Positions 6,316 to 28,906 are shown, numbered from the stretch's first letter. The stretch is 64,000 nucleotides of DNA from Clostridia bacterium (GCA_029060025.1 JAIDUV010000049.1:8904-72903); one strand, 5' to 3'. The notes: generated from the sequence alone by a model not told the origin. A program made the numbers and translations.

Positions 6316-7113
6316 TTACGTCTTGTCGGTATGCGTATTCTTAAGACGCTGTTGCCTAAGCCAGATACCCATCATACACCTTTGCGGCAACATCTTAGCA
6401 ACCAAATGCGAAACCTTGGTGTAAAGTCCGTATACCGATATATCTTTTGACTTCTTCGCGTCCTTGACAGCCTTCTTAGCAACGACGTCGGGATAGACTA
6501 TATGCGGAAAGACTCTCGTCCCCTTTTCGCCCTTAACGATTGCTCTCTCAATAAGCCTCGTCTGCATCCAACCGGGACACACAGCCGTCGCGACTATGCC
6601 CTTGCTCTTCAATTCCACGTTGAGCGCTCTCGTATAATTGCGAACAAAGGCTTTTGTAGAACTGTATATATTCTGATACGGCAAGGGTTGAAAGGACGCT
6701 TGCGACGCCATATTGATTATATGTCCGCCCTTTTGCATATACGGCAGACATATAAGTCCCATTGCGACGAGAGCGCTTATATTGAGATCTATCATATTTA
6801 TCGAAGTATATCTGTCTATTCCGCCGTAATCGCAGAACTTGGCGAAACCTGCGCAATTGACGAGCCATTTGACGTCGACGTCTTCGCTGATAATGAGCGC
6901 CTCGATAATGTCAAGATTTTTCCTGTCGGTCAAGTCCATTGCAAACACGCGCACTCGCCCTTTGTCGGCTTCTTTGACGTCTTTGAGCCTCTCCTCGTTG
7001 CGGCCGATTGCCCATAATTCGTCAAGTCCTTGTTCTTTCAACATCAATTTCAAAAACTCATAACCTATACCGCTGCTTGCTCCGGTAATGATTGCTATAT
7101 TCTTTTTGTCCAT
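6316..7113 (-). CDS. Short-chain dehydrogenase/reductase (SDR) family oxidoreductase
   Basis: 265 aa. TGASSGIG cofactor motif and YSSTK (YxxxK) catalytic motif. Confidence 0.85.
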   Translation of the reverse strand: MDKKNIAIITGASSGIGYEFLKLMLKEQGLDELWAIGRNEERLKDVKEADKGRVRVFAMDLTDRKNLDIIEALIISEDVDVKWLVNCAGFAKFCDYGGIDRYTSINMIDLNISALVAMGLICLPYMQKGGHIINMASQASFQPLPYQNIYSSTKAFVRNYTRALNVELKSKGIVATAVCPGWMQTRLIERAIVKGEKGTRVFPHIVYPDVVAKKAVKDAKKSKDISVYGLYTKVSHLVAKMLPQRCMMGIWLRQQRLKNTHTDKT

Positions 7114-10472: not shown

Positions 10473-11492
10473 TTACGCTACCCCACGTATAAAGTCTATC
10501 CAAGGAAAATCTTCTTTTGACGGGACTTTAGGCGTGTCGTCTTGAGCAGGCTTTTTGCGAGTAATTTTGCCTTGCACAGGCAAGTAGTTATCCTTTCGCA
10601 ATTCTTTTTGGAAAATGATTTTGCCGTCCTGCACGTACTCAATTATTGCTCTCGACTTATAGCCGACACTGCTCTTTTTCGTCTCGACGTATTCGCCGTC
10701 ACTATCTTGCTTGATTTCCCCGGAAAGTTCTTCCGACCATTCTATAATCGGCTCTGGAGGCTGCAAAACCTCGGTAATCTCACTGCGTAAATTTATCTTA
10801 TACGGCAACGGATGTCCGTATATGTCAAAATATACTTTTTTATCCTTAGTATATCCGTTGACTATTACGTCGTAATTGCTGTCATTGAGCAATACTAAGT
10901 CAATAAATTCGCTTACGGTAGCGTCTTGCGAAAGTCCGCAATAAGAAGACGGCAAAGAGTGCGACTGTACGGATTGAGCGGACATACCTGCCCTTATCCA
11001 AGCATTATACAGCGTAGTCGACACTTGACAAACTCCGCCACCTACGCCCTCGGTGTATTCGCCGTTGAGAATAACTTTCGCGTTTTTGTATCCCCTCTCT
11101 TCGCTCCTCAAACCTACCACGGTATTGAAAGACAGTGTCTCTCCTTTCTTTACGACGAGCCAGCAAAAATTACTGCTTGCCAACGCCACGTTGTGAGCGC
11201 GTTCTTCCTTAGACGTAGAATAATCTGTGTTAAAAGAACTGACAAGTTGCATTTTTGGCGAAAAGCCGTAGGGATTTGGACTGCTCATTGCAGCAATTGC
11301 CTGCATTTTTTGCCCTGCGTATAACAATACTCCGCCGACTGTAATCATAATTAAAGCGACGCAAATGAAAATTAAAAATATGCAGATATATATTTTCCTA
11401 CGACTTTTCACACTAATATTTTGTGAATGAGGAATAATTATATTCTGCATAATTTTGGCAAACTTAGGGTTGCAATTCTTTGATTTTATCAA
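10473..11492 (-). CDS. VanW-family protein
   Basis: N-terminal TM segment, then GGGVCQVSTTLYNA, the VanW-domain signature. The true start may be the internal Met at 11450. Confidence 0.8.
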   Translation of the reverse strand: MIKSKNCNPKFAKIMQNIIIPHSQNISVKSRRKIYICIFLIFICVALIMITVGGVLLYAGQKMQAIAAMSSPNPYGFSPKMQLVSSFNTDYSTSKEERAHNVALASSNFCWLVVKKGETLSFNTVVGLRSEERGYKNAKVILNGEYTEGVGGGVCQVSTTLYNAWIRAGMSAQSVQSHSLPSSYCGLSQDATVSEFIDLVLLNDSNYDVIVNGYTKDKKVYFDIYGHPLPYKINLRSEITEVLQPPEPIIEWSEELSGEIKQDSDGEYVETKKSSVGYKSRAIIEYVQDGKIIFQKELRKDNYLPVQGKITRKKPAQDDTPKVPSKEDFPWIDFIRGVA

Positions 11493-14208: not shown

Positions 14209-14227
14209 AAATTCAGTTAAAATTCAG
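14209..14227 (+). promoter_or_regulatory. 11-bp-phased direct repeat AAATTCAG x2 (candidate OmpR-type response-regulator site)
   Basis: AAATTCAGtta AAATTCAGcgc sits about 15 nt upstream of a weak -10-like TGATAGT (14242-14248) and about 50 nt upstream of the 1269-aa lipoprotein ATG. Confidence 0.3.
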
Positions 14228-14275
14228 CGCCGCAATCAAAAATGATAGTGAACCAAATTATAAAGGAGGCATATT

Positions 14276-17200
14276 ATGAAAAAATCAAAACTGACGCTAT
14301 TGTGCATAATGCTGATTATGGCAATTACTTTTGCCAGCGTATTCCTTGTAAGTTGTAACGACGACAACGGCAATGACCCCGCTAAGCAAGAAGCAATAAT
14401 TACCGCAAGTCTAATACAACAATATAAATACGACGGCAACGTGCACAACGTACAGGCAAAACTTAACCACGATGAGGCAACTTTGACTTATTCGCCCCAA
14501 CAAGGTTATACGGAAGTTGGCAATTACGAAATTACCATTTCTGCGCCTGAAACAAAAAATTATAACGCGGCTTCGCTCAAAGTCTTATTGAAGATAGTAA
14601 GCAACGAGGAGAAACCCGTCGACTCTGTTATGACTCGCTGGCAAGACTTATTGAGTGACGTCAAGGAGGTCTTCTCCGTCGATAAAGGAGACGTCAAGGT
14701 CAATATCAAAACCGAAGCCAATTTGACACCAAATAAAGGTGACGTAAGCAAATTCAAATTCGACGCCGTAGGCAATCTCGACTTGGCAAACAACACCGAC
14801 AACAAGACGAATTTCCACGTAAATTTTGCAATTGACGAAAATCAATACGGCTTATATATCCAAAACGGCGGTACGTATCTCAAACTTAACGACGATATAT
14901 TCTATCTAAATAATGCCGATATTATGTCACTTTTGACTCAAAATTCCTCAACGACGACTCCTGAAGACAGCGATTCGTCTTTGGTAGACGCAATAATCGA
15001 TCTTTTGCCGCTGGCGCTCTTCTCCAAATTGGACGACATAACCAATACGGACGGCGTATGGACCGTGTCTCTTGACTTAACGAGTATATGGGCTAAAGTT
15101 GAATTGTTAGTGTTGCCAATAGTCGGAAAAGACGTCTTGAGCCAAGAGAATATCAAATTTTTGGACGACTTTTTCAACGCAAACCAAATGACGTTTAAAT
15201 TGGAACTTGATTTCAATACTGTAAATTCCTTAACTGCAAAAGCCCAACTTAATATTGCTACATATGGCGCTTTCAAAGCCAACGTAACTGCAATGGAAAT
15301 TGCAAACGGCTCTTTTGACAACGTAGAAGGCGCGCTTACGCAGTCTCAAATGGAGAGCGCAAAGGCAATCAACGCCGCCAACGCGCAAATTCAAGGCACG
15401 CTCGCACTTGTAAACAAAAGCGGAGAGACTTACGAGCATCTCAATTGGAAGTTAGTAGCGGATATAGATCCTTTTGCATTGGCGCAAGCAATCAAAGCGG
15501 CGTCTGAAAGCCAAGACACTATGAGTTGGCTCAACGACGAAAACGTGCGCAATATGAAGGTATATTTCTCTTTGTATCACGAGCACCAAGCAGGAGACAG
15601 TGTAGCGTGCACGGATGTTATGTGCCCCACAAGAGCAGGCGGTATGGAAGATACGACTATTCTTGACGTCGCGTTCGACCCGCAAAATTTCGGTGACAGC
15701 AAAATTTATCTCGCGGCAAATTTGAGCAGAATTTTCTCGCAAAAATCTTTTACTACAACTTTGCAAAATCTCAACAGCCTTATCAACACTATGGCAGGCT
15801 CAAAATTGACCGGACTTCTCAACGAGAACTTCTTTACGGCAATTGATTTAACAAAGACGATAGTAAGTTCTGACAGCGAGCCCGATGAACCAAGCAATCC
15901 CGACGACGACAAATTGGATATCAAGGCTCTTATCAATCCTATAGTTGATTTATTGACAAAGGGACTCCAAATTCAAAACAACGCTATTACTCTTGATATG
16001 GAGCAGACTTACGCTTTGCTCGACAGTATATTGGATTTAAATACTTTGATAAATATCAATATAGAGAATATGATCAAAATCAATGCGACCAACGTAAAAG
16101 ACGCATTGTTCAAAGGCATTCTCTCGCCTGACGACGAAAGCGAAACAGACAAGGCATTCAATTCTATATCTTTGGGCATAACGTCGATTGAATACGGCAA
16201 TGCCGAGAATTTCAACTGCAAAGAAGCAATTACTCACGACCCGATCGACGCGTCAAAAGAGCGTGCTTTCGGAGGAAGCAAGCCGCTTTCGCTTGACAAT
16301 GCCAACGCAAAGACCACCGGCAGAGTCTTCAACACCAAGCAGACTTACGACGACTATACCGCAGCAGGCGGCATACACGTAACTTTGGAAGAACTCAACG
16401 CAGACGTCGTAGGCAAACTTATCGAATATACTTATACCGCAATGGACGGTCAAACCTATACAGCGTATACTCAAATCATCGCTTATGAGGGTCTTGACAC
16501 GACAAAACTCGACGTTCCGCAGACCATCAAGGCAATCGTATTGCCTCTTGACGGCAAAGGCGGTCTGTTTAGCGACCTCTTGTGGTCAATACTCCACTCT
16601 CTCGGATCGGGCGGTCTTATCGCGGGCTTCTTGCCAAGCAATATAACCATACCTTTCAGAGCCGACGTAATAGATATGCAAATCACGTTGACCGAAGTGG
16701 AAAGCGCAGAGTTTAATCTCAATATCCCGCTTGAAGACGAGTTCTTGCTCACTCCGTACGAATACGACAATACGGCGAAGTTGGATATGAGCAAATACCT
16801 CGGCGGAACTATTGATCTCGTATACACCGACGGCTTCAAGCGCACAATTACGGCAAGTTGCTCAAATGACTTAGTTAGCGATAAATTCCTCGTCAACGAC
16901 GGCAACGAATACACTATCACATTGAGCCACTACTCTATGCCTGACATCAAGCAAGACTTCAAAGTTCAAGCCAAGTCTCCCGAAAAGCCTTCTTTGATCA
17001 TCAACAGCGACGGCGGCATATCCGTATTGACTTACGGAGTTACGCAAGACCTTACGCTTGAAGTAGTAGTCAAAGCAAGTTCTTTATCTTCCGCAAAAGA
17101 AGTACCGTCGACGGATTACATAATAACTATTGGCGGAAAATCTCTTGACGAAATTGTTATCAATTCCGACGGCGTAGAGTTCTTTGAACTTGCGAAGAAT

Positions 17201-18085
17201 TCTGACGACGTGAAGATCAACTTCAAGCAAAGCGTAGCAAAGATGACGTCTGCCACCGCATACTTCTCGCTGAAATACAGCGACGGAACGACAAGCGCAG
17301 AGACGAGATATACCAAGTACTTTACCAAAGTAGCGCAAGAGGCAATTTGGGCAAGTATGAGCGGCATCAGCGACCTTGGCGCAAACCTCAACGGCAAACT
17401 CACCTACACTTATTGGACGGAAGAAGACGACGAATTTGCAGACGCAAGATTGCTCTCGTTGCTCTTTGAAGACGGCAAATACTATATGGTGGACAACGCC
17501 GAAAATCCGACGGTCAAAGTCGAAGTTGATCTCATTGCTTACGACAAAAACGACAAGTCAAAGACGAATATATTGGTAGACGGACTTATCCCGTTTGAAA
17601 AACTCCAAGAAATGTCTTACGACTCGGCAAAGAAAACAAGCAAGACTCCGTCAATAAACATCAGCGCTACCTTCACGGTAGATGGAGCAAAAGTGACGAA
17701 AGAAAAGACTTCGCAAAGTCTTAGCGCGGCGTACAATCTCACCTACATCTACGTTTCCAAAATAGAGTCGGATAAGACGTTTGACGACCTTATGAAATTC
17801 GTAGTGTTGACGCCAAACGGCGAATCTCACGATATGCGTCTTGCTTACAAGAATGGCAAGTACGTATTCTCCGATACGTTTGAGGGTACAAAACTCGGCG
17901 ATATCGAAGTGGAAGTTGTGGCAAATATTGCGCTCACCTCCTCTACGTTAGGAGATGAAATAACCTTGACTGACGGAAAGTTGGGCGCAGATCAAATCGG
18001 CAACAAAGTAACGCTGAGCGTCAAGTTTACTTACGGCGGACGCGAATTCTCGACAGCCGTGGTAACAAACAAAACAGTAGCATAA
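14276..18085 (+). CDS. Giant lipoprotein (1269 aa) with N-terminal MBG-like domain, function unknown
   Basis: RBS aaaggagg. Signal peptide with lipobox FLVSC. YKYDGNVHNVQA...GNYEITISA...NYNAASLKVLLKIV resembles an MBG domain. Central region is paralogous to the 18196-21222 product. The C-terminus holds about two ~120-aa internal repeats (…DGKYYMVDN…VEVDL / …NGKYVFSDT…VEVVA). Confidence 0.8.
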   Translation: MKKSKLTLLCIMLIMAITFASVFLVSCNDDNGNDPAKQEAIITASLIQQYKYDGNVHNVQAKLNHDEATLTYSPQQGYTEVGNYEITISAPETKNYNAASLKVLLKIVSNEEKPVDSVMTRWQDLLSDVKEVFSVDKGDVKVNIKTEANLTPNKGDVSKFKFDAVGNLDLANNTDNKTNFHVNFAIDENQYGLYIQNGGTYLKLNDDIFYLNNADIMSLLTQNSSTTTPEDSDSSLVDAIIDLLPLALFSKLDDITNTDGVWTVSLDLTSIWAKVELLVLPIVGKDVLSQENIKFLDDFFNANQMTFKLELDFNTVNSLTAKAQLNIATYGAFKANVTAMEIANGSFDNVEGALTQSQMESAKAINAANAQIQGTLALVNKSGETYEHLNWKLVADIDPFALAQAIKAASESQDTMSWLNDENVRNMKVYFSLYHEHQAGDSVACTDVMCPTRAGGMEDTTILDVAFDPQNFGDSKIYLAANLSRIFSQKSFTTTLQNLNSLINTMAGSKLTGLLNENFFTAIDLTKTIVSSDSEPDEPSNPDDDKLDIKALINPIVDLLTKGLQIQNNAITLDMEQTYALLDSILDLNTLININIENMIKINATNVKDALFKGILSPDDESETDKAFNSISLGITSIEYGNAENFNCKEAITHDPIDASKERAFGGSKPLSLDNANAKTTGRVFNTKQTYDDYTAAGGIHVTLEELNADVVGKLIEYTYTAMDGQTYTAYTQIIAYEGLDTTKLDVPQTIKAIVLPLDGKGGLFSDLLWSILHSLGSGGLIAGFLPSNITIPFRADVIDMQITLTEVESAEFNLNIPLEDEFLLTPYEYDNTAKLDMSKYLGGTIDLVYTDGFKRTITASCSNDLVSDKFLVNDGNEYTITLSHYSMPDIKQDFKVQAKSPEKPSLIINSDGGISVLTYGVTQDLTLEVVVKASSLSSAKEVPSTDYIITIGGKSLDEIVINSDGVEFFELAKNSDDVKINFKQSVAKMTSATAYFSLKYSDGTTSAETRYTKYFTKVAQEAIWASMSGISDLGANLNGKLTYTYWTEEDDEFADARLLSLLFEDGKYYMVDNAENPTVKVEVDLIAYDKNDKSKTNILVDGLIPFEKLQEMSYDSAKKTSKTPSINISATFTVDGAKVTKEKTSQSLSAAYNLTYIYVSKIESDKTFDDLMKFVVLTPNGESHDMRLAYKNGKYVFSDTFEGTKLGDIEVEVVANIALTSSTLGDEITLTDGKLGADQIGNKVTLSVKFTYGGREFSTAVVTNKTVA

Positions 18086-18152
18086 TTCTTCGCAATGGGG
18101 AATATTTCAAGCATTTCCCTCCGTATTCCCCTTGCAGCAATTCCCACAAAAA

Positions 18153-18178
18153 ACGGCGCGGTCTCACGACTGCGCCGT
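18153..18178. terminator. Bidirectional terminator between the two convergent giant lipoprotein genes
   Basis: ACGGCGC ggtctcacgact GCGCCGT, flanked by an A-run upstream and TTT downstream. Confidence 0.6.
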
Positions 18179-18195
18179 TTATCATTAAACAGTTT

Positions 18196-21100
18196 TTATT
18201 CAAAAGTTTTTTCTATGATTATTTCCTGCTCGCAATAAGAAGAACCAAGTTTAATACGCACCTTATAATATCCGCTCTTAAGGAACAGTATTCTTGTTCT
18301 CACCGCAATTGCCTCATAAAGCGTGGGCGGAAGATCTATGGCAAAGTTATTGTCGACGATATTGTTGTCAACTTTTATCTCCGATATATCAAAATACTGC
18401 TCTGCGTCCGTCGGCTCTTGATAATAGAGCGTTCCGTAAGCACTGATATATCCTCTCAGCACCTGTACGGAAATCGTAGAAGACACGCCCCACTCGCCGT
18501 GATAAGTATTGGAGATACCCGCCGAGAAAGCGTAGGTATAGCCCTCAAAATAATGCGAATTTACGCTGGTGGTATTCTCTATCTTATATTTGCTCTCGTC
18601 TCTTTTTTCCGACTTGGGCAAAATATAAAGCGGTATTGACTTCTCAAGGTCTGCATAACAGAACGTCAATGTATACCTGCCTATCTTATTTATTATGATG
18701 CTCTTCGTCAAAGAAGTTGGATTGACGTAAAAATATTCGTTGTCCTCGTCTATTGAATATCCGTTTATCTTCAAATAATCTACCGTCAAAGTCAATTCGA
18801 CGACGCTGCCGTCGGCAAGCGTAAATTGCAGTATGCCAACGCGCAATTGAGAAGAATATCCTACGTTGCTCTGCTCAAGCGAAAGTTCTTGCGCGGAAGT
18901 CTTCAATACTATATCCTTTGCAGGCTTTATTCTCACCATCTCGCCGTAATATTTTCCAAAAAGATAAAACTGCAATACGGTATCCTTATCTGCGCCGATA
19001 TATCTATTGCCGACGTGATCCGTCAATAAAAGTTCCTTGGCATTGGCGGCGCTCAAGTAAATGCTCTTACTCTTTCCGCCTTGATAATTTATTATCGCGG
19101 TAATCTTCTCTGGAGTATCGTCACCGCTCAATTTTTCTCCCTGCATATATTCCGACTTTTCCAAATGCTTGTAATCTACGTCCTCGACATTATCCAACTT
19201 GACGTAAGACACGACAGTTTTGCAAAGCCATCTGCTCCAACTGAATTTTCTCAACGCTTCCCATACTTTGCCGTCGAAATATCCTCTACCGGTCGGTATG
19301 CAGTAAAGTTCGATTTTCTGCCACCCTGCGTATTGCAAGTCGATGGGAGAATGATCCACGACGTACAACTGCGCGTCAAACTGCTCTCCGTAAATATCCT
19401 CTGCCTGTGCGTAAACGTAAGAGCCCGCAATCCTTTCTATCTCGTCGGCACTGATAGGAGTACCCGCTCCGTACAGCACGCCGTCTACGTATATTTCGTC
19501 GTAAAGACTGACGACGTCGTAGGTCTTGTCTCCGTCGACAGCCTTTTGACTTTGACAGAGATAATTTAATGCGGGCGGTCTGCTTATAAATCCTTTTGTA
19601 TATTGTTTAGTACCTTCCACGTCGTTGCCGTATAGGTGTATTGCGCTGCGCTTAATATCATACGGCGAGACGTTTTGCCTATAATAAGTCTGCTCCACCG
19701 TCATAGTATCAATTTGATAATTATCGCATTTGAACACGCTCATAATCGAACTTGCCGCTTCGCCGGACATTCCCAAGACCTGCAAAACCTTTTCGATAGG
19801 CGCGCTTAGACCGTTGTCTTTATAAATCAATGCCAACAGCAATTCTTCGCCTATCGTATTCCCTTCCTCTTCGGTCCCCTCAAGTGACCCCGAGATCTGC
19901 CTAGTAAGTGTCTCTGCCGATATGACAGTCAACCAATACTCGGGTATCTGCGTATTGAGCAAAGATTCTGAGATATTGAAGAACTGCGTCGTTACCCTGC
20001 TGCCTATTAAGGCTCGCAAACCGATGCTGATATATATGTCGTAATTGCCAAAGTCCTTAGGCGAAAACGCAACGTCAAAAATCGCGCCTTTCGCGGGGTC
20101 GTATTTATCCTTACAGAACGCGCCGCACTGCGAATTACATATATGCGTCACTCTTATATGAAAAAAGTTGTCTTCGTCGAGTTTTGTCAAATCCCAGTCT
20201 TCGGCTATCAATTCTAACAAGTCCAACTTGGCTCTAAATTCATAATCGTATTGCATCTCAACGCGATTTGAAGATGTATTTTCAAGTTTGACGACTCCCA
20301 CCGTAGTGGCTTCAAAAAGCCTCTTGTCCTCATATTCTCCGTCATCAGGATAGTACTCGATTATAGATTCGTCTTTTCCGTTGGAAATAGATATACGCGA
20401 CATATTGAATTTGAATTTTTTATTCCCATCCACGTCTTGCAAGGCAAGTTCTTCGCTACTAATCTCGCTCAACTTGCCGTCGGATATACTAATATTTATT
20501 TTTCCTTTGAGCGGCGGAGTCTTAGAAAGCAAATCCTCATAATTCTCCACTTTTGCAATTGAGAAAAACAACTTTTGCAACAACTCAGGCAACTTTGAAA
20601 AAGTCTCTCTTGCAATCGCGCTGTCAAGTCCCTTTTTTAAATCAAAATCAAATGTATAGACGCTGTGGTCGGCGTTTGCCGTAGCGTCGGTAAAAAACAC
20701 TCTTCCAAACAATATAAAAGCCACGCCCATAGTAGAATAATTGATGTCTTCGCCAAAAAGTCCGACTACTTTGGTCAAAGAGTACAAAAGCGGCGCATTG
20801 TCATAACGGTTGCGGACGTATTGACCTGTATCTTCGTCGTATATCTGCCAATACAACAAGTCTGAGTCGTTGTACAACTGCAAAAATATCTGTCTATCCT
20901 CTCCGACGACTTTTTCTATATTCAACACGCCTTGTTGAGAATTTTTGTTTTGAAAGTCAAGATTGAGTTTGAGCGTGCAATCGTATTTATCACCGTTATC
21001 TACATCGGTTATGTCTATATTGAAATCGCAAGTAACCGCTTCTTTTGTATCGACCTTTAAAAACTGTGCGTCAATAGCCGACGCAACGTCATAAAGATAA

Positions 21101-21222
21101 TCTCGCCAATCAGTGACGGGAATATTCTCTTTGTTGGGCGTGCCTTTGCAAGCGCAGACAGATAAGCATACGCCTGCCAGCAATAATACCGCAACAGAAA
21201 TTATCACCCATTTTTTACGCAT
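18196..21222 (-). CDS. Giant lipoprotein (1008 aa), paralogue of the 14276-18085 product, co-operonic with a two-component system
   Basis: Start moved to ATG 21222 (RBS aagagg; the listed start is TTG). Signal plus lipobox SVCAC. IFDVAFSPKDFGNYDIYISIGL matches ILDVAFDPQNFGDSKIYLAANL in the paralogue. The HK stop TGA (21225-21227) lies 2 nt from the ATG. Confidence 0.8.
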   Translation of the reverse strand: MRKKWVIISVAVLLLAGVCLSVCACKGTPNKENIPVTDWRDYLYDVASAIDAQFLKVDTKEAVTCDFNIDITDVDNGDKYDCTLKLNLDFQNKNSQQGVLNIEKVVGEDRQIFLQLYNDSDLLYWQIYDEDTGQYVRNRYDNAPLLYSLTKVVGLFGEDINYSTMGVAFILFGRVFFTDATANADHSVYTFDFDLKKGLDSAIARETFSKLPELLQKLFFSIAKVENYEDLLSKTPPLKGKINISISDGKLSEISSEELALQDVDGNKKFKFNMSRISISNGKDESIIEYYPDDGEYEDKRLFEATTVGVVKLENTSSNRVEMQYDYEFRAKLDLLELIAEDWDLTKLDEDNFFHIRVTHICNSQCGAFCKDKYDPAKGAIFDVAFSPKDFGNYDIYISIGLRALIGSRVTTQFFNISESLLNTQIPEYWLTVISAETLTRQISGSLEGTEEEGNTIGEELLLALIYKDNGLSAPIEKVLQVLGMSGEAASSIMSVFKCDNYQIDTMTVEQTYYRQNVSPYDIKRSAIHLYGNDVEGTKQYTKGFISRPPALNYLCQSQKAVDGDKTYDVVSLYDEIYVDGVLYGAGTPISADEIERIAGSYVYAQAEDIYGEQFDAQLYVVDHSPIDLQYAGWQKIELYCIPTGRGYFDGKVWEALRKFSWSRWLCKTVVSYVKLDNVEDVDYKHLEKSEYMQGEKLSGDDTPEKITAIINYQGGKSKSIYLSAANAKELLLTDHVGNRYIGADKDTVLQFYLFGKYYGEMVRIKPAKDIVLKTSAQELSLEQSNVGYSSQLRVGILQFTLADGSVVELTLTVDYLKINGYSIDEDNEYFYVNPTSLTKSIIINKIGRYTLTFCYADLEKSIPLYILPKSEKRDESKYKIENTTSVNSHYFEGYTYAFSAGISNTYHGEWGVSSTISVQVLRGYISAYGTLYYQEPTDAEQYFDISEIKVDNNIVDNNFAIDLPPTLYEAIAVRTRILFLKSGYYKVRIKLGSSYCEQEIIIEKTFE

Positions 21223-21224
21223 AC

Positions 21225-22457
21225 TCAACCTCTTTCGGGAAGAAACGCCGTCACGATAAGTCCGCTCGGGATATTGGAAGTCGCGTAAATTTTACCGCCA
21301 ATCTCCTCTACCATACTGCGCGCAATTGCAAGTCCCAGACCGGTGCCGGGCTTGCTTGTCTTGACGTTGTCTCCTCTGTAAAATCTCTGGAATATCTTTT
21401 CTTCGTCACCGTCGGCAATACCTACGCCGGTGTCTGCGACACTCAATACGCAACCGCCGTCGGCGCTCTTCAAAGTGACTTTGATTTTATCTTTGTCACT
21501 CGTATACTTGACTGCGTTTTCCAAGAGTATTATCGCAAGTTGCTTGACCTTTTCTCCTTCCATAACGGTGCTTGCCGACTGCACGTTGGCAATAAGAGTA
21601 CGGTTGGACTCGCCTATAATTTCGGCGTATACCTCAAGTACGCCCAATACTATTTCGCTTACGTCCGAACTGCTCTTGGGGGTTGCCGCAGGCGAAGATA
21701 CGCTGCGCATCAAATCTTGCGACAGCGTGGTGATATGCTGAACTTCTTCGAGAGTATTCTCCACAAGATCACTCACTTGCAACACCGTAGAATCTGGAGA
21801 AGCAAGCATATTTTCCATATTACCTCTTATGACAGTCAGCGGCGTACGAATTTCGTGCGTCATATCGTGGATAAATTCTTTTTGCTGACGTATTGCATTT
21901 ACGACAGGCTTGCCCATCAAAAAAGCAAAAGCCGTGTATATCGCAAGCACTAAAATAACCGTAATGGGAACAAACCAAATAAAGGTGTCGACGTTCTCGT
22001 ACTTTTCAAGCAAATCTGCCTGCATAAGCAACTTGACGTAGACTCCATCTCTATATACGAAAGTATAAGTCTTGTATTTATAATTTCCGATTTTCTCGTC
22101 CACCGTAGTGTCGAATCTATCGGGAATCGCGCTGGTATGCGACTTGAGATACGCCACGGCGGTATAGTCTCCCGCAGTGTTGTCGGGGCGGCGAATATAC
22201 ACGATTACGTCGATATTCTCGCGATATAAATATCCGCTTTCATAGTCCTCCTCGACGAGTTCAAACAGCGAACTCTCTCCGCTATCCTTTATCAACTGCG
22301 CGTATTGGCTCATAGTCTTTTGCGCAATGTCGTCGCCGCTTGTGCGTATCTGCACGACGATGCCTACGCAAAGCGCCAAAATAACGACAAGCGTAACCAA
22401 TCCCGCTATCCAAGCCCTGTATTGCCAACTCTTGGTGGTGATCAAAGTGTTCTTCAT
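21225..22457 (-). CDS. Sensor histidine kinase (HisKA/HATPase_c)
   Basis: 410 aa. Two TM segments flank a ~130-aa extracytoplasmic domain. H-box HDMTHEIRTPLT and G-box GTGLGLAI. The ATG abuts the RR stop (TAAATG). Confidence 0.9.
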   Translation of the reverse strand: MKNTLITTKSWQYRAWIAGLVTLVVILALCVGIVVQIRTSGDDIAQKTMSQYAQLIKDSGESSLFELVEEDYESGYLYRENIDVIVYIRRPDNTAGDYTAVAYLKSHTSAIPDRFDTTVDEKIGNYKYKTYTFVYRDGVYVKLLMQADLLEKYENVDTFIWFVPITVILVLAIYTAFAFLMGKPVVNAIRQQKEFIHDMTHEIRTPLTVIRGNMENMLASPDSTVLQVSDLVENTLEEVQHITTLSQDLMRSVSSPAATPKSSSDVSEIVLGVLEVYAEIIGESNRTLIANVQSASTVMEGEKVKQLAIILLENAVKYTSDKDKIKVTLKSADGGCVLSVADTGVGIADGDEEKIFQRFYRGDNVKTSKPGTGLGLAIARSMVEEIGGKIYATSNIPSGLIVTAFLPERG

Positions 22458-23150
22458 TTAGCGCACCCCCTCGAGATTGTAGCCTGTCTCACTCCATCTG
22501 TAGCCTATTGTCTTGACGGTTTGCAGACATTCGCTCAGCCCTATGTTTGAGAGTATCTTGCGCAATCTATAGATATACACCTCGATTACACTCTGCAACG
22601 TATCACTGTAAAATCCGCATACGCTGTCAAACAACTGTTGTTTTGTGACGATTATTTCTTTGTTTTTGACGAGGGTCTCAAGCACTTCGTACGCCTTACC
22701 GTTGATAGGCAGCATTTCGCCGTTGTACTCAACCATTTTGCTGGTATAGTCTATCGTAAATTCTCCCAATTTATATTTCAAAGCGCCAAAATCTCTGTGG
22801 TATCTGCGCATAGTCGCCTGCACTCTCGCAAGCAACTCTTCTCTAGAGAAAGGCTTGACCATATAATCGTCCGCGCCGAGATTGAGAAATTCCACTTTTC
22901 GCTCCAACATACCTATCGCAGAGAGAATAATTATCGGCGTAAGTTTGTGACGGCGCACGCCCCTCAAGACTTCTTCGCCGTTCATTTTTGGCAACATAAT
23001 GTCAAGAATTACGATATCGTAATCGTTGGTGAGTATTTTATGAAGACCGGTTTCGCCGTCGTACGCCGCTTCGGTTTCGCCTATCGAACTCAACATTCTG
23101 CAAAGCATATCCGACAATGCTTTATCGTCTTCAACTACTAATGCTTTCAT
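22458..23150 (-). CDS. OmpR-family response regulator
   Basis: Start at ATG 23150 (MKALVVEDD, RBS gagggaag). Receiver DIVILDIMLP plus a winged-helix C-terminus. Confidence 0.9.
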   Translation of the reverse strand: MKALVVEDDKALSDMLCRMLSSIGETEAAYDGETGLHKILTNDYDIVILDIMLPKMNGEEVLRGVRRHKLTPIIILSAIGMLERKVEFLNLGADDYMVKPFSREELLARVQATMRRYHRDFGALKYKLGEFTIDYTSKMVEYNGEMLPINGKAYEVLETLVKNKEIIVTKQQLFDSVCGFYSDTLQSVIEVYIYRLRKILSNIGLSECLQTVKTIGYRWSETGYNLEGVR

Positions 23151-23202
23151 ACTTCTTCCCTCGCCTTTATTATTCGTTGCGCATACGCGCCGACGCATTT
23201 AT

Positions 23203-23230
23203 ATTATAGCATATCGACCACGATTGTCAA
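23203..23230 (-). promoter_or_regulatory. Sigma-A-type promoter of the two-component/lipoprotein operon
   Basis: Minus strand: TTGACA, 16 nt, (TGc)TATAAT. Consensus -35 and an extended -10. Confidence 0.6.
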
Positions 23231-23264
23231 TTCCCATTATTTTGTAATCTCGACCGACATTATT

Positions 23265-23344
23265 GTCATTGACGCTCGCACAAGACGCATCTGCTTGCTC
23301 GCTATGCCGTCACTTCGTTCCTTACGAGCATAGTCGAGAAATCT
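23265..23344 (+). repeat. Composite ~80-nt repeat (type B head + type A short form)
   Basis: gtcattgacgctcgcacaagacgcatctgcttgctcgctatgccgtcacttcgttccttacgagcatagtcgagaaatct. Preceded by a head-only fragment gtaatctcgaccg at 23244. Confidence 0.85.
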
Positions 23345-23354
23345 CCTTCCTATT

Positions 23355-23381
23355 GTCATCTCGACCGTAGTGGAGAGATCT
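23355..23381 (+). repeat. REP-like unit, middle form
   Basis: gtcatctcgaccgtagtggagagatct. Confidence 0.8.
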
Positions 23382-23386
23382 AATCC

Positions 23387-23427
23387 TTTTTAATAAGTAC
23401 CGACAAAATGGAGCCTTGCAATATTTT
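23387..23427 (+). repeat. Type C repeat (TTTTAATAAGTACCGACAAAATGGAGCCTTGC...)
   Basis: 33 nt identical to 27017-27049 and about 41 nt similar. A partial third copy is at 30757-30776. It always lies next to a type A unit. Confidence 0.75.
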
Positions 23428-23433
23428 AAAAAA

Positions 23434-27212: not shown

Positions 27213-28112
27213 TTATGCCCCATACTTACTCAACACTTCCCCAAGCGAACTCTTCGTTGCGTCTCTATTTATTCTTTTGAGAAGATAAAGACTGCGTCTG
27301 CCGTAGATATGATTTATACCCTCATTGCAAGTCAAAGTCATTACTATTCCCTTGTCTTTGAGCACGCTCTCGCTTATTTTCGTATACTTGCCGTAGGGAT
27401 AAGCGTAGATATTGGATGTCACTCCCAATTCACCAAGTTTATCAACTAGTTTTTGCGTATCACTCGAAAATGCCTGCTTATACGCTTCATCACTCTCGCT
27501 ATTAAGTTGAGATACGCCAAGTCTTGGACGAGTGTTGTGCATAGAATATGAGTGAAGACCTATCTCTACGTTAGCATTTTTAGATACTTGCGCAATGTCG
27601 TTCCAACCAAAGTATATAAAGTCTCCTCCGCCCTTTCCGTTTTTATCAAACAAGGTATAATCGCCCACTACGGAAAACAGCCCGCTGTAGCCAAATTCTT
27701 CAAGTAGCGGCAACGCATAAGTCATATTGTTGAGATACCCATCGTCGAAAGTCAAAATCACTGCTTTATCAGGAAGCGCCGTTCCGTTGTCAACGTACTT
27801 GATAAGACTTTGACAACTAATTACGTTATATCCATTATTCTTGAGATACTCAAAGTCTTTTCGCAAACTATCTTGATTGATGCAATACACGCTTTGTTTT
27901 TTTCCTTTTGCCAAAGTGTTGTGATACATCAAAATCGTCAAGTCACCTAGACAAGTCTGCGAAACCTCGCCTGTACTTGCCGTTGTTTGCTCTTGACTTT
28001 CCACGCTCAATAGCGTCGTTGCGGTATTCTCGCCGCCTTTGCTAAAAATACCAAATCCAAGCGCCGTCAGCGCCAAAAACAAACATATAATACTCAAAGC
28101 AACTCTTTTCAT
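27213..28112 (-). CDS. Polysaccharide deacetylase family protein (secreted)
   Basis: Start at ATG 28112 (MKRVALSIICLFLALTALG signal, RBS ggagag). LTFDDGY NodB motif. Confidence 0.8.
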   Translation of the reverse strand: MKRVALSIICLFLALTALGFGIFSKGGENTATTLLSVESQEQTTASTGEVSQTCLGDLTILMYHNTLAKGKKQSVYCINQDSLRKDFEYLKNNGYNVISCQSLIKYVDNGTALPDKAVILTFDDGYLNNMTYALPLLEEFGYSGLFSVVGDYTLFDKNGKGGGDFIYFGWNDIAQVSKNANVEIGLHSYSMHNTRPRLGVSQLNSESDEAYKQAFSSDTQKLVDKLGELGVTSNIYAYPYGKYTKISESVLKDKGIVMTLTCNEGINHIYGRRSLYLLKRINRDATKSSLGEVLSKYGA

Positions 28113-28207
28113 ACGTATCTCTCCGCTGTCTTTTACCTGCTTTCGCAACAACTTCTGGAAATCAAAGGCAAAAGGCATTATTCCTATATTGTGAAACTAT
28201 ATCGGTT

Positions 28208-28906
28208 TTATACAGTCAAAGCGTCGGATAATACGCCTGCAATTACGCCGCAAAGTTCCCTACAGTATTCTTGCGATAAAAGCAATCTTTCGTCTTCGGC
28301 GTTGGATATAAAACCGCACTCGATTATTATCGACGGAACTTTTACGCACTTGGTAATAAAGAGGTCTCCGCCAATTGCCTCATAATCGTCTCTGCCGCTG
28401 TATTTTGCGTTGATATTTTGATTTATACTGCGCTGCATACTCTCCGCAAAGTCTTTGCCCACGCCGGTGTCGTCATAAAAGACTTGGGCTCCTCTGCGCG
28501 ACGAATCGGAAAATCTATTGACGTGAAGACTTATAACTGCGCTTGGCGCCGTCTTGACTATAATATCCTTGCGCGCCTGCATATCCAGTCTTTTAATATT
28601 GTTGAGGGCGTCCTTAGTTGTTCTCGTCATAACTACGCCTATTCCACTACTCTCAAGTATATTTTGCAATATCCCCGCCATTTTGAGATTTATATCGCTC
28701 TCTTTGACGCCTTGACTGCCCACGACTCCGCCGTCAATACCGCCGTGACCTGCGTCTATCACGACGGTATGCTCATAGATTTTCCCAACCGGCTGCGATT
28801 TTTGCGCAAAAATACACACTCCGCAGATACTTGCCGTAACCGCGATAATAGCAATAATTACAACCGCGACAATATACTTCTTTTTTGTTATAAATACCAT
28901 AATCAA
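28208..28906 (-). CDS. N-acetylmuramoyl-L-alanine amidase (Amidase_3, CwlD-like)
   Basis: 232 aa with an N-terminal TM segment. VVIDAGHGGIDGG, ISLHVN, ECGFISN. Confidence 0.85.
   Translation of the reverse strand: MIMVFITKKKYIVAVVIIAIIAVTASICGVCIFAQKSQPVGKIYEHTVVIDAGHGGIDGGVVGSQGVKESDINLKMAGILQNILESSGIGVVMTRTTKDALNNIKRLDMQARKDIIVKTAPSAVISLHVNRFSDSSRRGAQVFYDDTGVGKDFAESMQRSINQNINAKYSGRDDYEAIGGDLFITKCVKVPSIIIECGFISNAEDERLLLSQEYCRELCGVIAGVLSDALTV

Follow-up and report, generated by a model that had tools for sequence, protein, structure and literature searches.

The locus described here raises the question of how a two-component system (TCS) is related to two giant lipoproteins that are encoded beside it. 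It lies within a 64,000-nucleotide stretch of DNA from a Clostridia bacterium (GCA_029060025.1, JAIDUV010000049.1:8904-72903; hereafter the window, from whose first letter positions are counted), the source genome being a 2.04-Mb metagenome-assembled genome (MAG), and it comprises the genes of an OmpR/PhoB-type response regulator (RR), a HisKA histidine kinase (HK), a 1008-aa lipoprotein (LP1) and a 1269-aa lipoprotein (LP2) (Table 1). All four open reading frames lie at the positions given in the original prediction. Judged from the sequence, RR, HK and LP1 form an operon behind a constitutive-type promoter, and LP2 is transcribed separately behind a conserved pho-box-like site. This direct-repeat box in the LP2 promoter is the strongest link between the genes and goes beyond the original prediction, which had been made by inspection of the window. 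The reading that we favour, and to which we give a somewhat better than even chance, is that the four genes constitute a signalling module complete in itself, carried by Christensenella-like gut Clostridia, in which LP1 would serve as a kinase-associated ligand-binding co-sensor and LP2 would be the only regulated output.

The box is an 18-bp direct repeat, AATTCAG-TTAA-AATTCAG, composed of 7-bp half-sites and a 4-bp AT spacer with an 11-bp period, and the hexamer GATAGT (14244-14249) is located 16 nt downstream of it. Class II sites of PhoB and OmpR (pho boxes) are direct repeats of approximately 7 bp that have an 11-bp period and overlap the -35 position. The architecture upstream of LP2 is likewise that of class II activation, with two 7-bp half-sites and a 4-bp AT-rich spacer replacing the -35 element upstream of the -10 element; it differs from the Pho regulon, which is multi-operon, in that the half-site AATTCAG is new and the predicted site is single in the window's own genome, where the box is unique at up to 2 mismatches. 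An alignment of six LP2 upstream regions revealed little conservation other than AATTCAGTTA(A/G)AATTCAG, which is invariant, TGATA(A/G)T located 15 nt downstream, and the ribosome-binding site. The box precedes LP2 in all of the loci, in either orientation of LP2 and with a one-base variant in a single locus (L026); no copy lies upstream of the RR operon. In two loci in which LP2 is co-directional with LP1 (L002 and L006), terminator-like hairpins with T-runs lie between the two genes; LP2 is therefore regarded as its own transcription unit.

The distribution of the box follows that of the signalling genes. A slightly degenerate box pattern, searched for in 61 genomes of relatives, was found exactly once in each of the 10 genomes with a full-length LP1 and twice in the genome G028, a member of another genus (g7) in which the RR-HK-LP1 triad is intact and the LP2 orthologue is located on another contig; this unlinked orthologue retains ATTTCAGTTTAATTTCAG at -68 from its ATG. 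Overall, 11 of the 12 genomes with a triad contained the pattern, against 0 of the 49 that lack the triad (Fisher p = 2.9e-11), and a reversed control pattern yielded one match across the 61 genomes. The degenerate pattern missed the genome G069, in which the first half-site starts with T. Furthermore, the half-site shifts with RR divergence, being AATTCAG at 77-97% RR identity, ATTTCAG at 62% and (A/T)ATTTAA at 49-51%. On the strength of this co-occurrence, the LP2 box is proposed as a putative site of the RR of this module.

Two further repeats were observed in relatives. In a second family, represented by the loci L032 and L041 (the latter from G069), ATTTAATTTTAATTTAATTTGAATG, an 11-bp-phased AT-rich direct repeat, precedes the second giant lipoprotein gene in both loci (L032 6270-6300 and L041 10362-10386), which show no blastn similarity to each other outside the RR gene at E <= 1e-20; this repeat is probably a diverged operator. 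G028 also encodes a third paralogue of 905 aa (L039 ~6716-6744; G028:C4:40709-40737), which is associated with three inverted half-sites, CTGAAT/CTGAAA, with an 11-bp period. These lie directly downstream of a sigma-70-like promoter, TTGACG-17-TAAAAT, a repression-type geometry that is the opposite of the activation-type geometry found at LP2.

The tight RR-HK-LP1 operon behind a consensus promoter at 23203-23230, as originally proposed, was upheld. The RR stop codon TAA directly adjoins the ATG of HK (0-nt gap), 2 nt separate the HK stop codon TGA from the ATG of LP1, and the promoter, TTGACA-16-TATAAT with an upstream TG, matches the consensus at 12 of 12 positions; a near-consensus sigma-70 promoter is kept before RR-HK-LP1 in closer relatives. 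The RR start at position 23150 (MKALVV) is preceded by the ribosome-binding site GGGAAGAAG. An alternative RR open reading frame of 246 aa begins at an ATG at 23198, 5 nt downstream of the -10 hexamer of the promoter; it is unlikely to be the true gene because orthologue alignments begin at MKALVV, and automatic annotation may over-extend the RR gene to this ATG. The DNA upstream of the RR promoter (window 23240-23430) is composed of repeat units, GGTCGAGAT.ACAA and others, which are unrelated to the LP2 box; these units were considered as RR autoregulation sites and dropped, the LP2 box being absent there.

LP2 had also been described as convergent to this operon and as sharing one terminator with it. 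Both the layout and a terminator-like hairpin are present in the window: two hairpins are predicted in the 110-nt gap between LP1 and LP2 (z = -6.7 for the plus strand and -4.5 for the minus strand). The second, at 18151-18180, is likely to be a bidirectional terminator serving both genes because it has A6 and T3 at its sides; read on the minus strand, it runs into TTTTTT, as suits LP1. The arrangement is not ancestral, however. LP2 is convergent in close relatives and is co-directional, directly downstream of LP1, in distant ones; hence, the convergent layout is explained as a lineage-specific inversion of LP2 plus its promoter.

The two signalling proteins show ordinary domain compositions. 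The RR contains a receiver and a winged helix (Pfam Response_reg, E 3e-23, and Trans_reg_C, E 7e-16), and the HK contains HisKA (E 4e-10) and HATPase_c (E 5.5e-24). The HK does not reach the cut-off of any NCBIfam equivalog, and its assignment to a named system (PhoR, WalK or MtrB, for example) is therefore impossible. Two transmembrane segments surround an ectodomain of ~118 aa (residues 41-158), and the region from the second segment to the H-box is nearly linker-free, from which it follows that the HK has no HAMP domain.

LP1 and LP2 are, on profile comparison, ancient paralogues that constitute a new lipoprotein family. The lipobox pattern of Gram-positive lipoproteins (G+LPP) is matched by LP1 (C25), LP2 (C27) and 23 of 23 aligned relatives, and the Cys is invariant. 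BLASTP aligned LP1 and LP2 over 214 aa with 24% identity (E 1e-6), and an hhalign comparison of the two family profiles aligned residues 39-876 of LP1 with residues 115-994 of LP2 collinearly over 766 columns (probability 98.5%, E 2.3e-15). The distant paralogy that had been suggested from three short patches thus covers most of LP1. Because the profile alignment is collinear, LP2 can be described as an LP1-like body with two additions, namely an N-terminal MBG-like domain and a C-terminal tandem duplication. The duplication, anticipated in the original prediction, was detected by hhalign (~1036-1140 versus 1166-1257, ~105 aa; probability 96.9%, E 1.9e-10) and not by BLASTP. The MBG-like assignment fared less well: residues 35-108 of LP2 do match Pfam MBG_2 (E 0.0066), but at 17.5 bits the match is under the gathering cut-off of 25, and similarly weak MBG_2 matches occur in 3 of 24 family members. 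Otherwise, as had been claimed, neither giant could be assigned to a described family by Pfam, NCBIfam or PDB-sequence searches. No Pfam or NCBIfam family was obtained for LP1 or LP2 at E <= 0.1; a Pfam search of 24 members at E <= 10 gave no recurring family except weak MBG_2 and PKD; and a profile search against PDB sequences returned nothing for LP1 and noise only for LP2. The most conserved block of both the LP1 and LP2 families is a His/Cys cluster followed by D-x-A-F-x-P-x-x-F-G, and members of the broader family carry additional Flg_new and Big_3 repeats. In a 90%-identical relative (L008 11149-14967), LP2 is split by the gene caller into products of 962 aa and 292 aa, although tblastn aligns the gene as a whole; the split suggests that the MAG contains an in-frame stop or an assembly error there.

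Structure prediction with AlphaFold2 (AF2) was performed for full-length LP1 from 11 sequences (predicted local distance difference test score, pLDDT, 75; predicted template-modelling score, pTM, 0.45) and for residues 28-520 from a 24-sequence alignment of LP1 and LP2 (pLDDT 78, pTM 0.71). A Foldseek search of the full-length model against PDB and BFVD retrieved only generic strings of immunoglobulin (Ig) domains (the S-layer proteins SbsC and EA1, and BbgIII) at template-modelling (TM) scores < 0.2; these low scores are due to the multi-domain query, and the matches describe residues ~550-1008. The domain model, by contrast with the full-length one, gave 38 PDB matches at E <= 1e-3 (best 6e-6), with a probability of ~1.0 for most, and nearly all of them are LolA, LolB, RseB, MucB, LprF or staphylococcal LolA-like lipoproteins, with a few unrelated folds; named structures among them are RseB (2v42), MucB (6jau) and LprF (4qa8). 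The target-normalised TM of this model, itself a prediction at pLDDT 78, against the superfamily is only 0.35-0.48, at 8-14% sequence identity, and no LolA-type Pfam family was matched in the 24 members even at E <= 10. The modelled N-terminal half of LP1 is thus consistent, at the level of fold, with a membrane-proximal open beta-barrel of the LolA/RseB/LprF type.

Table 1. Coordinates of the genes, signals and protein regions of the locus in the window.
Feature	Position	Strand	Description or basis
LP2	14276..18085	+	1269-aa lipoprotein, lipobox FLVS-C27
LP1	18196..21222	-	1008-aa lipoprotein counted from its ATG, lipobox SVCA-C25
HK, HisKA histidine kinase	21225..22457	-	410 aa
RR, OmpR/PhoB-type response regulator	22458..23150	-	230 aa from the MKALVV start
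Consensus extended sigma-70 promoter of the RR-HK-LP1 operon	23203..23230	-	Sequence match
Candidate response-regulator box AATTCAGTTAAAATTCAG	14210..14227	+	Two 7-mers, second half-site at the -35 position
-10-like element TGATAGT (GATAAT in most relatives)	14243..14249	+	Conserved columns
LP2 ribosome-binding site AAGGAGG	14263-14269	+	Sequence
First intergenic hairpin	18092..18135		44 nt, begins 7 nt past the LP2 stop codon, before the likely terminator hairpin
Second intergenic hairpin	18151..18180		GC-rich, 13 bp, flanked by A6 and T3
LP2 N-terminal MBG-like/Ig-like domain (residues 35-108), not in LP1	14378..14599	+	Weak MBG_2 match; N-terminal to the LP1-aligned region
LP2 body collinear with LP1 39-876 (LP2 residues 115-994)	14618..17257	+	hhalign
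LP2 most conserved block, H435, H437, C445, C450 and D464-G473 (D-AF-P--FG motif)	15578..15715	+	Invariant columns, conservation profile
LP2 tandem C-terminal module, ~105 aa (residues ~1036-1140 and ~1166-1257)	17381..18046	+	Profile comparison
LP1 predicted LolA/RseB-like open beta-barrel with helical inserts (residues ~36-400)	20023..21117	-	AF2 model, Foldseek
LP1 most conserved block, H355, H360, C362, C366, C370 and D383-A-F-S-P-x-D-F-G392	20032..20160	-	Conservation profile
LP1 predicted string of Ig-like beta-sandwich domains (residues ~550-1008)	18199..19575	-	AF2 model

The four genes are kept together in a narrow range of organisms. A search of 5.8 billion clusters at 90% identity returned only 12 for LP1, and the LP1 profile retrieved 80 proteins among 1.84 billion representatives. 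Full-length LP1 was found in 10 of the 61 relatives' genomes, corresponding to ~10 of 23 within the genus; diverged copies occur in two further genera, none was found in 24 other families of the order within the 61-genome set, and one other genome with the LP1 family was found among 300 genomes sampled across the class. From this distribution across genus, order and class, the lipoprotein family is considered to be accessory and lineage-restricted. The related loci derive from MAGs of uncultured Christensenella, Christensenellaceae and Clostridia, of which many belong to catalogues of the mouse gut. Every fetched locus of sufficient length contains all of RR, HK, LP1 and LP2, and the profiling of relatives showed that the RR-HK-lipoprotein triad stays together as a unit throughout the related loci as well as in other genera (including g2, represented by G023) and in the second family. 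In the latter (L032 and G069), the RR is 49-51% and the HK 36-38% identical to those of the window, and the next two genes encode, in this order, an LP1-like protein and a second giant lipoprotein (1125-1226 aa), which shows remote collinear homology to LP2 (probability 84.7%, E 6.7e-6, 894 columns). Across the loci, identity to the window is 77-97% for RR, 65-96% for HK, 39-91% for LP1 and 40-86% for LP2; hence, evolution is much faster in the lipoproteins than in RR and HK.

The genes flanking the module vary between subclades. VanW-like, polysaccharide deacetylase and CwlD-like amidase genes flank it in the window (10473-11492 and 27213-28906) and in the close relatives L008 and L009; these genes represent insertion-site synteny and lie outside the module, because they are absent beside it in distant relatives. 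An origin as a mobile element, defence system or phage was rejected, since there are no flanking integrase or phage genes and the GC content of the module equals that of its surroundings.

If the region is indeed a self-contained signalling module, phosphorylated RR would bind the box and activate LP2 and no other target. LP1, produced at a constant ratio to the kinase, would act as an extracytoplasmic co-sensor, its LolA-like barrel binding a hydrophobic or amphiphilic ligand and modulating the 118-aa ectodomain of HK, and LP2 would be the induced effector paralogue that binds, sequesters or carries the same ligand class at the cell surface. A more far-reaching version, in which the giant LolA-fold LP1 is an obligate ligand antenna of HK, the entire regulon is the paralogue LP2, sensor and effector are duplicates of one surface receptor kept across two gut Christensenellales families, and the His/Cys cluster is a metal or redox centre for ligand recognition, is advanced tentatively and is more likely to fail in some part than to hold throughout.

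Several observations weigh against the module as proposed. The divergent triad of G023 has no box, in a genome that is 78% complete; the genome may encode other OmpR-type regulators; and the LolA-like assignment derives from one AF2 model, built on a 24-sequence alignment and matching known structures at a TM of 0.35-0.48, to which sequence profiles lend no support. In addition, orphan paralogues without a TCS occur in G010, G031, G036 and G028, and the basic function of the family therefore needs no kinase; LP1 could then be co-expressed cargo. Two of these orphans, of 1205-1229 aa (L036 7268-12583 and L037 4018-9378, from G036 and G031), are each followed by a gene for a conserved protein of ~555 aa (MDENKQITPSEE...), which, from its position, may be a different partner of the lipoprotein family.

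Orphans of this kind also favour the main rival explanation, which we regard as possible and clearly short of probable: LP1 and LP2 would be surface adhesins or S-layer-like structural proteins, the TCS sensing something else through its own ectodomain, LP1 being operon cargo without a sensing role and LP2 a regulated variant for surface remodelling. The C-terminal halves are Ig-like strings that resemble the S-layer proteins SbsC and EA1 as well as Ig adhesins, yet conservation peaks in the membrane-proximal LolA-like and His/Cys part and not in the distal Ig domains. Similarly, the Flg_new and Big_3 repeats of the broader family are typical of surface proteins, whereas no Pfam match to SLH, CWB2, LPXTG or any other wall-anchoring module (cell-wall-binding or sortase motif) was found in LP1, LP2 or 24 relatives. 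Rapid evolution of LP1 and LP2 relative to RR and HK is likewise as in exposed surface proteins, but a role as mere cargo fits poorly with the position of LP1 directly behind HK, from which it is separated by 1-2 nt in loci of the genus and by 9-126 nt outside it, in other genera and the second family, and with the promoters, that of RR-HK-LP1 being of constitutive type without the box and yet that of the paralogue LP2 carrying it.

A second explanation takes the fold more literally, LolA, LolB and LprF-type folds being those of lipid and lipoprotein carriers: LP1 and LP2 would form a hetero-oligomeric lipid or lipoglycan machine, whose LolA-like barrels shuttle lipid between the membrane and the wall or environment, and the TCS would be an envelope-stress sensor that sets their stoichiometry. 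This is improbable. Its presence in only ~10 of 23 genomes of the genus marks the module as accessory, which a core function of the envelope would not be; beside it, no gene for a transporter or for lipid metabolism is conserved, and LP1 and LP2, although long kept together as a paralogue pair, are unlinked in G028; the small host genomes (1.3-2.1 Mb), which may rely on scavenged lipids, would suit such a machine. Finally, that the 18-bp repeat serves a different regulator or is a UP-like promoter element, with the TCS controlling unrelated genes elsewhere, is very improbable, given the near-perfect phyletic match of box and triad, the single box per genome in the 10 full-length-LP1 genomes, the classic OmpR/PhoB architecture and the change of the half-site alongside RR divergence, and in spite of the box-free RR operon, which leaves no autoregulation signature to tie the RR to the motif.

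The proposed co-sensor and operator can be compared with known systems. DctB, acting with DctS/DctR in B. subtilis, and HptA, acting with HptS/HptR in S. aureus, serve as binding-protein co-sensors and are themselves paralogous to the uptake component under regulation. They follow the same logic as is proposed here: beside the TCS lies the gene of a protein that binds a ligand outside the cytoplasm and signals to the kinase, and what is regulated in response is a surface component related to, or partnered with, that protein; however, they have solute-binding folds, are much smaller and have transporters as outputs, whereas LP1 and LP2 are predicted to be LolA-like plus Ig-like. RseB and MucB are LolA-fold sensors in sigma-E signalling, in which RseB modulates RseA. 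The mycobacterial membrane lipoproteins LprF and LprJ interact with the kinase KdpD and are thought to be ligand-binding sensors (PMC3610689). The likeness of RseB, MucB and LprF to the LP1 N-domain is at the fold level only (TM 0.35-0.48, 8-14% identity), and RseB, MucB, LprF and LprJ are proteins of 200-320 aa with one or two domains, whereas the prediction for LP1 and LP2 is a ~370-aa barrel that carries helical inserts and the conserved His/Cys cluster, joined to 450-800 aa of Ig-like domains. Strings of beta-sandwiches as in SbsC and EA1 provide the best full-length structural matches of LP1, but LP1 and LP2 are lipid-anchored and not SLH-anchored, the TM is < 0.2, and the N-terminal half of LP1 is unrelated to them.

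The closest parallel in gene order is the mtrA-mtrB-lpqB operon of actinobacteria, in which the lipoprotein LpqB acts with the kinase MtrB (PMC5845573): there too, one operon contains the genes of an OmpR-type RR, a HisKA kinase and a lipoprotein in this order, the last directly behind the kinase gene. LP1 is unrelated to LpqB in sequence (Pfam and NCBIfam gave no family at E <= 0.1), is ~2x its length and, unlike LpqB, has a paralogue as the apparent sole member of the regulon, and the present module is clostridial and accessory, not universal. By analogy, LP1 may at most work like LpqB; it is not a member of the LpqB family. The view that a sensor kinase coupled to a very large lipoprotein is atypical therefore applies to size and family, not to the arrangement, for which MtrA-MtrB-LpqB (PMC5845573) and LprF/LprJ-KdpD (PMC3610689) are precedents. 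The theme of a TCS with an accessory lipoprotein is already known, and what is unusual here is the size and family of the lipoprotein; the protein family, the operator and the design of a sensor with a paralogous output are undescribed as far as the libraries searched show.

The locus thus adds a family of ~1000-1300-aa surface lipoproteins without Pfam coverage and, with its predicted operator, what would be a rare and cleanly delimited circuit of one sensor and one target. It also offers a candidate LolA-fold co-sensor in Firmicutes, which, if true, extends the logic of RseB and LprF past Proteobacteria and Actinobacteria. Christensenellaceae-like bacteria are gut organisms associated with health, most of them uncultured, and, to our knowledge, almost nothing is known of how they sense the gut. 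In these bacteria, a fast-evolving and strain-variable pair of surface proteins such as LP1 and LP2 may matter for niche or host interaction.

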